Assembly: GCF_054482525.1 (NCBI RefSeq)
Contig: NZ_CM137006.1
Direction: 5' to 3' (one strand)
Length of the DNA stretch: 64,000 bases
The translations under genes were made by a program, and so were the position numbers. Of this stretch, positions 25,859-56,135 are shown one piece after another. The notes under the pieces are model-generated. The model was not told the DNA's origin and ran no database searches. It worked only from the letters and a program-made list of their open reading frames with translations. The stretch's first letter is position 1; every line of letters begins with the position of its first letter.

Positions 25859-25934
25859 TGGCTCCTCTGACTGGACTCGAACCAGTGACATACGGATTAA
25901 CAGTCCGCCGTTCTACCGACTGAACTACAGAGGA
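25859..25934 (-). tRNA. asnV: tRNA-Asn (GUU)
   Basis: Reverse complement reads TCCTCTGTAGTTCAGTCGGTAGAACGGCGGACTGTTAATCCGTATGTCACTGGTTCGAGTCCAGTCAGAGGAGCCA (76 nt, anticodon GTT). The asnV name is assigned from synteny next to ldtA/nac. Confidence 0.95.
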
Positions 25935-26260
25935 ATCGTGTGAACGGGGCGCATATTAATGGCAGTGCATGGTGATGTCAAAGGGTGAAATGCATTTTTT
26001 TGTTTGTTTGCTGTCAATTTCAACAAAGTGGTGAGCTTTCAATCTTATTGGGTAATGAACCATCGTGGTGCATACCCTCCTTTTATAGGGCAGGGGAACG
26101 CGACAGCTGATAAAAAGAGCCAATGACGAATCTATCATAATCTCTTATTTGACAGTTGGTTAGCTTGTACATCAACGCCAAAATAAAACTGGCAAGCATC
26201 TTGCAATCTGGTTGTAAGTAATGGCGGCACTTGGGCCGATTCTTATAAACCGGAGGCAAC

Positions 26261-27178
26261 ATGAACTTCAGACGCCTGAAATACTTCGTAAAAATTGTAG
26301 ATATTGGTAGCCTGACCCAGGCTGCTGAAGTATTGCATATCGCACAACCAGCGCTCAGTCAGCAGGTTGCCACACTGGAAGGTGAGTTAAATCAACAACT
26401 TTTGATTCGCACAAAACGGGGCGTTACGCCAACTGACGCCGGAAAAATTCTCTATACCCATGCGCGGGCCATTTTACGTCAGTGTGAGCAGGCCCAACTG
26501 GCGGTGCATAACGTTGGTCAGGCATTATCGGGGCAAGTCTCGATTGGCTTTGCACCAGGAACCGCTGCGTCATCCATCACCATGCCCTTATTACAGGCGG
26601 TTCGCGCTGAATTTCCGGAGGTCGTTATCTATCTTCATGAAAATAGCGGTGCAGTGCTTAACGAAAAACTGATAAATCACCAACTCGATATGGCGGTGAT
26701 TTATGAGCATTCCCCTGTGGCTGGTGTATCCAGTCAGGCTTTACTGAAAGAAGATCTTTTTCTGGTAGGAACTCAAGATTGCCCGGGGCAAAGCGTTGAT
26801 GTTAATGCTATCGCGCAAATGAACCTCTTTCTCCCCAGTGATTACAGTGCTGTTAGACTTCGTGTTGATGAGGCTTTTTCCCTACGGCGACTCACGGCAA
26901 AAGTCATTGGTGAAATTGAGTCTATTGCCACGCTTACCGCAGCGATTGCCAGCGGCATGGGCGTTGCAGTATTACCCGAATCGGCCGCGCGTTCGTTATG
27001 TGGCGCAGTAAACGGATGGATGTCACGCATTACCACACCTTCCATGAGTCTCTCTTTGTCATTAAATTTACCCGCCAGAGCGAACTTATCACCACAGGCG
27101 CAAGCAGTGAAAGAGTTGTTAATGTCAGTGATGAGTTCTCCAGTGATGGAAAAAAGGCAGTGGCAATTGGTGAGCTAA
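26261..27178 (+). CDS. nac: Nitrogen assimilation control protein (LysR family)
   Basis: 305-aa ORF MNFRRLKYFVKIVDIGSLTQAAEVLHIAQPALSQQV... Confidence 0.92.
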   Translation: MNFRRLKYFVKIVDIGSLTQAAEVLHIAQPALSQQVATLEGELNQQLLIRTKRGVTPTDAGKILYTHARAILRQCEQAQLAVHNVGQALSGQVSIGFAPGTAASSITMPLLQAVRAEFPEVVIYLHENSGAVLNEKLINHQLDMAVIYEHSPVAGVSSQALLKEDLFLVGTQDCPGQSVDVNAIAQMNLFLPSDYSAVRLRVDEAFSLRRLTAKVIGEIESIATLTAAIASGMGVAVLPESAARSLCGAVNGWMSRITTPSMSLSLSLNLPARANLSPQAQAVKELLMSVMSSPVMEKRQWQLVS

Positions 27179-55747: not shown

Positions 55748-56059
55748 GCTTACCTTCCCTGAACGAGCTAACATAAATGCGCCCTTTCTAGCACAGCGAA
55801 AAAAAGTAAATCCTGATAGCAATATGATTGAAAATTAATAACTTTTCGTTAAGCAGTTTTGAGTGTGAGTTGCAAGAGGGGAGACTACTGAATTACTCAA
55901 GTTTTATAATCGAGGGGAAAATGGTGATGGCGTTCATAGCAAAACGCCCTCAACCATAAAGGTTGAGGGCGCTTAAGATGTCAAAAACCCGCTATCCGTT
56001 AAAAAGCAATGCTCAACTAAGATCAGTGACATTGCGCTAAAAAGCGAATTTTTAGAATT

Positions 56060-56135
56060 TGGCTCCTCTGACTGGACTCGAACCAGTGACATACGGATTA
56101 ACAGTCCGCCGTTCTACCGACTGAACTACAGAGGA
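56060..56135 (-). tRNA. asnT: tRNA-Asn (GUU)
   Basis: Identical 76-nt tRNA-Asn on the - strand; name from synteny (yeeJ on one side, mtfA on the other). Confidence 0.95.

Follow-up and report, generated by a model that had tools for sequence, protein, structure and literature searches.

The window analyzed here, a stretch of 64,000 nucleotides from an Escherichia coli genome (assembly GCF_054482525.1, contig NZ_CM137006.1), contains four identical tRNA-Asn genes, asnV, asnU, asnW, and asnT, of which only asnW is occupied by an island. The four genes very probably constitute a classical hotspot for islands with a P4-family integrase, which the 10.65-kb island described below entered at asnW, the choice of this particular copy being a matter of history. 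The island is small and partly decayed, with an intact integrase gene, broken other accessory genes, and a cargo consisting of a predicted Rhs polymorphic toxin and a putative immunity gene. Judged by its position, its repeats, and its gene content, it is a tRNA-targeting P4-integrase island and is neither the high-pathogenicity island (HPI) nor the pks island nor an integrative and conjugative element (ICE).

All four genes are predicted by ARAGORN as tRNA-Asn(GUU). The unoccupied copies are asnV (positions 25859 to 25934, minus strand), with ldtA 55 bp downstream and nac upstream, asnU (28268 to 28343, minus strand), with cbl 37 bp downstream and yeeO upstream, and asnT (56060 to 56135, minus strand), with yeeJ 312 bp downstream and mtfA upstream and with no HPI attached. 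These spacings to ldtA, cbl, and yeeJ leave no space for an insertion. The occupied copy is asnW (30092 to 30167, plus strand), whose 3' end forms the left attachment (att) site of the island. The gene names were assigned from the map of E. coli K-12. The usage of these names by Auvray et al. (PMC8209727) agrees with our assignment.

The preliminary description of this DNA took the four copies to be identical in sequence and to offer the same att target at their 3' ends, and both points hold: a single distinct 76-mer covers all four genes, and the next 4 nucleotides after the gene, AATT, are also common to all, so that each copy carries the same 20-bp core CCAGTCAGAGGAGCCAAATT. The sequences diverge from position +5 onward, and a search for differences in the att core that might have been overlooked finds none through +4. 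No copy is therefore excluded as a target, and the choice among them is not dictated by the core. Pairwise, the identity reaches into the flanks, over 111 bp for asnV and asnT (99.1%) and over 84 bp for asnU and asnW (100%), which marks the copies as paralogous and excludes a chance match.

Each gene is preceded, at a distance of about 20 bp, by a sigma-70-like promoter close to the consensus. The promoter-like elements read TTGACA-17-TAATAT for asnV (25981 to 25953, minus strand), asnW (30045 to 30073, plus strand), and asnT (56182 to 56154, minus strand) and TTGACA-16-TAAGAT for asnU (28387 to 28360, minus strand). A terminator-like hairpin lies downstream of asnV (25852 to 25825, minus strand), and a GC-rich hairpin with a T-run can be read directly downstream of asnU. 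The asnU gene is also overlapped on the opposite strand by a RefSeq coding sequence for a 61-residue “DUF5951 family protein” (28299 to 28484, plus strand), which is probably an annotation artefact.

The boundaries of the island are defined by a direct repeat. The attL core, composed of the last 16 nucleotides of the asnW tRNA gene plus AATT (30152 to 30171, plus strand), recurs as an exact 20-bp copy at 40801 to 40820 (plus strand). With about 3e-5 chance matches of the tRNA 3' 16-mer expected within the window, this second copy of the tRNA end is taken as attR, the distal boundary of the island on its right side. We then joined position 30167 to 40817 in silico, deleting positions 30168 to 40816, and compared the resulting junction with 5,426 complete E. 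coli genomes, 5,424 of which gave any match. Each junction query consisted of the tRNA gene with 500 bp on either side (1,076 bp), and a junction was counted as contiguous when the match extended over 80% of the query. Only with this deletion does the asnW junction take its prevalent form, found contiguous in 4,975 genomes; in strain MS14386, where asnW is naturally empty, the alignment runs base for base without gaps. The direct repeat and the precise natural empty site together place the island at 30168 to 40816, with a length of about 10.65 kb.

The same comparison bears out the earlier claim that only the third copy carries an insertion. Both native flanks of asnW are present in the window, and excision restores the natural empty site, whereas the junctions of asnV, asnU, and asnT are contiguous as they stand in the window in 4,664, 5,176, and 2,664 of the 5,426 genomes, respectively, K-12 included (strain MG1655 in the case of asnT).

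The sequence that natively follows asnW (40817 to 41000, plus strand) appears to derive from an older island at the same site, of which it would be an ancient relic that has become fixed. It comprises about 200 bp resembling the integrase leader and first codons of another asn-tRNA island, aligning to the left end of the asnT island of MS14386 with 74.8% identity over 202 bp (E = 2.6e-32). The relic first codons read TDITIRKVK, compared with TDTTIRKIK in the asnT island type of MS14386 and others. This homology to an integrase leader suggests that the species-wide “empty” asnW site itself bears the scar of an older occupant.

Directly downstream of asnW, the native sequence is replaced by a leader of 161 nucleotides (30168 to 30328, plus strand), which aligns as a homologue of the sequences leading into the integrase genes of the HPI and pks and is predicted to form stem-loops (minimum free energy of -45.7 kcal/mol, z = -2.8). 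The integrase gene int (30329 to 31591, plus strand) starts 161 nucleotides past the tRNA 3' end and reads away from asnW. It encodes a P4-family tyrosine integrase of 420 residues with the Pfam domains Arm-DNA-bind_3, Phage_int_M, and Phage_integrase, which the NCBI Prokaryotic Genome Annotation Pipeline (PGAP) annotates as an intact recombinase. The protein aligns without gaps to the integrases of the pks island (71% identity) and the HPI (70%), and its identity to the integrase of the MS14386 asnT island is 53%. The motifs RSSELR, HGxRAM, and AAY are present, and the gene reads as full length and intact, so that its product may be catalytically competent.

The likely course of integration follows from the arrangement of these parts. 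The integrase would have recombined the attP of the island with the 3' end of the asnW gene. The island would bring a replacement tRNA 3' end, and the displaced original end would stay behind as the 20-bp repeat at 40801 to 40820; because the new 3' end is supplied by the island, the tRNA-Asn gene stays intact. Integration would also part asnW from its native downstream sequence and place int behind the tRNA promoter. The homologous leader suggests that int may be transcribed from the asnW promoter, and by analogy with ICEKp1 the 161-nucleotide segment would act as an attenuated leader driven by that promoter. The position of int behind a tRNA promoter has been experimentally shown for ICEKp1 and was noted for pks and the HPI (PMC8209727).

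A survey of related genomes for islands at each copy, which had been proposed as a check in the preliminary description, shows that all four copies are used, with unequal frequencies. In strain NC101, the HPI follows asnT and the pks island follows the tRNA gene bearing the asnW promoter. Strain CB7286 has the HPI with its integrase at asnV, and its remaining three copies, asnT among them, are empty. MS14386 carries a 6.5-kb integrase island at asnT, and XYEH3934 carries at asnT a decayed relative of the island described here, whose integrase gene has 96.5% nucleotide identity to ours and an internal stop. Strain 1504D004 has a 9-kb block of sugar-phosphotransferase system and pentose-phosphate genes, without an integrase, between ldtA and asnV. 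No island family examined is confined to a single copy: pks occurs at three (PMC8209727), the HPI occurs at two, and the integrase type of our island occurs at asnW and asnT. The copy filled in a given strain would then reflect history, namely, which island arrived, followed by clonal inheritance.

The island described here covers at least 80% of an 11-kb query in 206 genomes. Its integrase adjoins the asnW promoter in about 100 genomes, a number obtained by subtracting from 366 matches the 266 that are of the pks type, at 80 to 90% identity. The exact right end, where the immunity gene is joined to the asnW flank, is found in 67 genomes. These counts fit with variable Rhs tips and with more than one insertion site.

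The identical copies were also suspected of being substrates for inversion or deletion, and the survey does find rearrangements between them. We used chimeric queries, each made of the sequence upstream of one copy and the sequence downstream of a different copy, covering five of the 12 possible junctions, and found these junctions in 265, 1, 32, 1, and 35 genomes, indicating that the copies act as recombination substrates. The nac-tRNA-yeeN junction, expected of an inversion between asnV and asnW, occurs in 265 genomes, among which are Nissle 1917, M1/5, and NC101. In NC101, the pks island fills the position between the asnW promoter and ldtA, the downstream flank of asnV, and a pks-type integrase follows the asnW promoter in 266 genomes; the asnV/asnW inversion is tied to pks. 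The reciprocal empty junction, yeeO-tRNA-ldtA with the upstream flank of asnW and the downstream flank of asnV, is found in SE15 (NC_013654.1) only. SE15 was considered as a clean inversion free of pks and rejected, its inverted nac-cbl-asnU-yeeO block and a partial second yeeO beside the yeeN-side tRNA gene representing a duplicative rearrangement instead.

Inversion between asnW and asnU, flipping yeeO, is seen in 32 genomes, and the junction of an asnW/asnT inversion is seen in one, ET5. The asnU promoter is joined to the downstream flank of asnV (yeeO-tRNA-ldtA) in 35 genomes. A simple deletion of nac-cbl, which would give this junction, was rejected for CREC-544 (NZ_CP024826.1), the one genome of the 35 that was inspected, where nac-cbl and the asnV promoter are relocated beside yeeJ, among extra Rhs/PAAR islands. 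Two asn copies of CREC-544 carry Rhs/PAAR islands with an integrase, and one more Rhs/PAAR island borders, next to cbl, on the flank downstream of asnU. An excised circle re-entering at asnT would explain this arrangement and is a candidate mechanism. The inversions and the relocation of the intervening genes would have been produced by the identical copies or by resident integrases acting on them: the agent could be either RecA, using the 76 to 111 bp of identity, or the integrases of the islands, using att sites, and the data do not separate the two.

Several points weigh against a hotspot at which history alone selected the copy and at which the resident island could still move. The Pfam scan finds no excisionase of the Xis/AlpA-like type, and no other recombination directionality factor, in the 13 open reading frames (ORFs) of the island or in the native-flank ORF at 40912 to 41193, and the island contains several pseudogenes, so that it may have lost its mobility. 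Relatives of the island carry integrase genes with internal stops, and the sequence alone cannot display an excision product or a circular form. The chimeric junctions were covered in part, as given above. Finally, the native junction is broken in about 2,760 (51%) of the 5,424 matching genomes at asnT, about 760 (14%) at asnV, about 449 (8%) at asnW, and about 248 (5%) at asnU, percentages that pool insertions, rearrangements, and flank loss and that are uncorrected for clonal relatedness and for sampling bias among complete genomes. With occupancy so unequal, the flanks may genuinely make some copies better targets than others.

The best-surviving alternative, to which we would give slightly less than an even chance, is that the island is a fixed, immobile remnant. 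In this case, it would have integrated a single time in the distant past, its roughly 100 to 200 carrier genomes would stem from vertical descent and from homologous recombination of the flanking core genes rather than from continuing site-specific integration, and the empty copies would be uninformative on current target choice. Along with the lack of an excisionase match among the scanned ORFs, the frameshifts in the second integrase-like gene and in a hypothetical gene of the island speak for this, as do related copies in which the integrase has internal stops or a truncated annotation; an asn-tRNA island that has become immobile is on record in the HPI of E. coli (PMC8209727). However, the integrase in the window is full length and aligns with those of the HPI and pks without a gap, the two 20-bp repeats match perfectly, and about 100 genomes have this integrase type at asnW and others have it at asnT, which indicates that it moved between copies at least in the past. 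For the present-day island, mobility may be retained, with int and both 20-bp repeats intact, though an excisionase was not found and pseudogenes are present.

A second alternative holds that the four copies are unequal targets because of sequence beyond +4, promoter strength, or neighboring genes, and that the occupancy of asnW was determined rather than historical. We regard it as rather unlikely. The uneven proportions of broken junctions given above would be expected under it, asnU is both the least used copy and the one with the least consensus-like promoter (16-bp spacer and TAAGAT), and in Klebsiella one of four sites was used only once (PMC6202445). Against it, every island family examined occurs at more than one copy, and a few events inherited clonally, such as the HPI at asnT and pks in phylogroup B2, make up most of the percentages.

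That the island first entered another asn copy and was then moved beside the asnW promoter by recombination between copies, as pks was in B2, is hardly credible here: the nac-tRNA-yeeN junction in 265 genomes, with pks between the asnW promoter and the asnV flank ldtA, and the asnW/asnU and asnW/asnT inversions provide precedents, but both flanks of our island are native to asnW (yeeO upstream and the yeeN side downstream), the neighbors stand in K-12 order, and in silico excision restores the common empty asnW site exactly, which contradicts such a transfer for this window.

The remaining genes of the island are compatible with its description as partly decayed. Just past int lies an AT-rich noncoding stretch (31793 to 32151) with two direct repeats of 131 nucleotides, which are 73% alike, lie 228 nucleotides apart, and contain an internal imperfect palindrome of 42 nucleotides; the ORFs in this stretch have no Pfam matches. 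It is followed by a second integrase-like gene (32929 to 33645, minus strand) with Pfam matches to Phage_int_SAM_2 and Integrase_1, which is truncated or frameshifted and which PGAP annotates as a frameshifted “phage integrase N-terminal domain-containing protein.” The next gene (34496 to 34750, minus strand) encodes a Ner/SfsB-like winged-helix DNA-binding protein of 84 residues (Pfam HTH_35, 8.8e-31), whose match to the NCBIfam SfsB model (3.9e-32) stays under the model cutoff. A frameshifted hypothetical gene (34747 to 35207, minus strand), which PGAP lists as a pseudogene and whose translation contains stops, has an ORF of 100 residues that matches no Pfam family.

The largest gene of the island (35729 to 39910, plus strand) encodes an Rhs element core protein of 1,393 residues. 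It matches the NCBIfam RHS_core equivalog with 2,595 bits against a cutoff of 2,000 and contains the Pfam domains RHS_repeat (eight copies), DUF6531, and RHS. The Rhs_assc_core region covers residues 1177 to 1254, with the DPIGL motif at residue 1228 (nucleotide 39410). The protein is homologous to Rhs effectors of the type VI secretion system with solved structures, for example, Tse5 (7.5e-118). Its variable C-terminal tip, beginning after DPIGL, has a G+C content of 37.7%, compared with 60.5% for the core. The tip matches no Pfam family and gives no significant sequence match in the PDB, and a Foldseek search of the PDB with its single-sequence AlphaFold model, which is of low confidence (predicted local distance difference test score of 61.8), yields no match below E = 0.08. 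At the N-terminus, there is a weak, partial motif match to PAAR (E = 0.065, 13.9 bits against a cutoff of 27). The gene downstream (39967 to 40515, plus strand) encodes a TPR/Sel1-like repeat protein of 182 residues, with weak TPR/Sel1 matches in Pfam and the PGAP name “tetratricopeptide repeat protein.” Its position and its low G+C content of 31.9% suggest that it might be the cognate immunity protein, and the two genes would accordingly be a toxin and immunity pair by homology and arrangement.

The ORF list and the PGAP annotation of the island contain no ybt, irp1/2, or fyuA genes and no clbA-clbS cluster, and no vgrG gene, chaperone gene, or orphan tip accompanies the Rhs gene in them. Of the strains used for comparison, NC101 and CB7286 have the yersiniabactin genes, and NC101 has the clb cluster. 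Type IV secretion, relaxase/mobilization, and xis modules are likewise absent among the island ORFs, their Pfam matches, and the PGAP annotation.

The islands of CREC-544, where up to three Rhs/PAAR islands fill different asn copies in one genome, raise a broader and more speculative idea, which we consider improbable at present. The P4-integrase islands at tRNA-Asn genes could be a mobile delivery platform for Rhs/PAAR toxin-immunity cassettes, and the resident integrases, not RecA, might drive the inversions and the relocation of nac-cbl. If this is true, clade I rhs genes would have in such a platform a site-specific means of “transposition” to new loci.

The chromosomal setting of the island was compared with that of the phylogroup D strain PCN033 (NZ_CP006632.1), of which the window strain is a close relative. 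In the sequence alignment, positions 1 to 57231 of the window are 99.97% identical to the PCN033 chromosome, with 11 mismatches and one gap between 12000 and 57231, and the roughly 11 kb surrounding asnW is 100% identical to PCN033 and a few further strains. SCU-102, 19KM1776, and 1190 also show 100% matches to parts of the window. The possibility that the window is PCN033 itself is ruled out by the full divergence right of serU, where PCN033 has zinT and IS1397. According to the RefSeq/PGAP annotation of PCN033, the gene order is ldtA-asnV-nac-cbl-asnU-yeeO-asnW-[island]-yeeN-amn-shiA-family-9 glycosyltransferase-yeeJ-asnT-mtfA-serU, and the window has the order of K-12 on the opposite strand.

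Within this region, the family-9 glycosyltransferase gene between shiA and yeeJ (45511 to 46563) is intact and encodes 350 residues; its counterpart in K-12 is presumably the yeeL pseudogene. The neighboring yeeJ (47135 to 55747) encodes 2,870 residues as annotated and contains internal repeats of about 600 bp with 85 to 90% identity. To the left of the asn cluster, the interval between tmaR (yeeX) and cobU (21662 to 22296) contains only a truncated pseudogene of the EutP/PduV family and one hypothetical gene, whereas NC101 and CREC-544 have the pdu operon in this interval. The interval looks like a further variable spot scarred by a deletion. A cobU-linked pathogenicity island is described in a review (PMC7545054) for B2 strains such as 536, CFT073, and UTI89.

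A second tRNA-linked insertion is found at serU, a tRNA-Ser(CGA) gene predicted by ARAGORN (57127 to 57216, plus strand), which is followed by the left arm of a lambdoid prophage (57217 to 64000) running past the end of the window. The prophage genes include a tyrosine integrase (57269 to 58294, minus strand), a protein of 823 residues with an Rv2179c-like exonuclease domain (58556 to 61027, minus strand), a CI-type repressor with HTH_3 and Peptidase_S24 domains (62875 to 63522, minus strand), and a P22 Cro-like gene (63619 to 63846, plus strand).

The use of several asn tRNA copies by islands is already published, for E. coli by Auvray et al. in 2021 (PMC8209727) and for Klebsiella by Lam et al. 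in 2018 (PMC6202445). The value of the window is therefore mainly confirmatory; a single Rhs island at asnW is ordinary for this locus and does not overturn the current understanding. Our survey of 5,426 genomes reproduces on a larger set the published result from 785 isolates, that is, the multicopy use and the pks-linked inversion. It adds approximate occupancies for all four asn copies, two rearrangement classes (the asnW/asnU inversion and the nac-cbl relocation), and the finding that the cargo associated with HPI/pks-family integrases extends to Rhs toxins, which is a modest addition. In an incomplete literature search, no report of an Rhs island at an asn tRNA gene of E. coli turned up, and the main text of the PCN033 genome paper makes no mention of one; given the incomplete coverage, this is weak evidence for novelty. 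The asn-tRNA cluster sets the location and stability of major virulence islands of E. coli, those for yersiniabactin and colibactin, and the filled and free copies of a strain are useful for typing and for predicting further acquisition.

Among the closest known systems, the pks island has in common with our island a P4-type integrase directly following the 3' end of a tRNA-Asn gene, short repeats of that 3' end in direct orientation, the same chromosomal cluster, a homologous int leader, and an integrase with 71% identity. Auvray et al. (PMC8209727) found the asn tRNA genes of E. coli to be 100% identical, with pks at asnW, asnV, or asnU and the HPI at asnT, and the asnV-asnU-asnW region to be inverted specifically among B2 strains of the typical pks-positive kind. 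Our island differs from pks in having no clb genes, in its length of 10.6 kb compared with 54 kb, and in its direct repeat, which measures 20 bp compared with 16 to 17 bp in pks and has a different sequence after CCA. The backbone of the window is also noninverted, unlike that of typical pks-positive B2 genomes.

The HPI, listed at asnT or asnV by Desvaux et al. in 2020 (PMC7545054), shares the integrase family (70% identity), the att core in the tRNA-Asn 3' end, and the hotspot. In contrast to the HPI, our island has no ybt, irp, or fyuA genes, and asnT is empty in the window. Both repeats are kept in our island; in the E. coli HPI, the right repeat has reportedly been lost (PMC8209727).

The elements ICEKp and ICEEc1 of Klebsiella and E. 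coli likewise target any of four clustered, identical tRNA-Asn genes with unequal site usage; in Klebsiella, the four copies lie within 16.4 kb and all are used by ICEKp at unequal frequencies (PMC6202445). In these elements int is transcribed from the tRNA promoter after integration, as it may be in our island. The island differs from them in the absence of type IV secretion, mobilization, and xis genes from its annotated content, and it is nonconjugative.

The Rhs protein itself resembles the clade I Rhs proteins of E. coli (RhsA-D type) and the Rhs proteins of Salmonella SPI-6/ROD9, with which it shares the GC-rich core, the DPxGL motif, the AT-rich variable tip, and a short gene placed downstream, where an immunity gene would be expected. 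Jackson et al. in 2009 (PMC2935791) placed the rhs genes of Salmonella on mobile islands but described those of E. coli as scattered loci with no integrase. While the rhs loci of E. coli are usually described as fixed in the chromosome, with no integrase attached, the rhs gene described here lies inside an integrase-bounded tRNA island.

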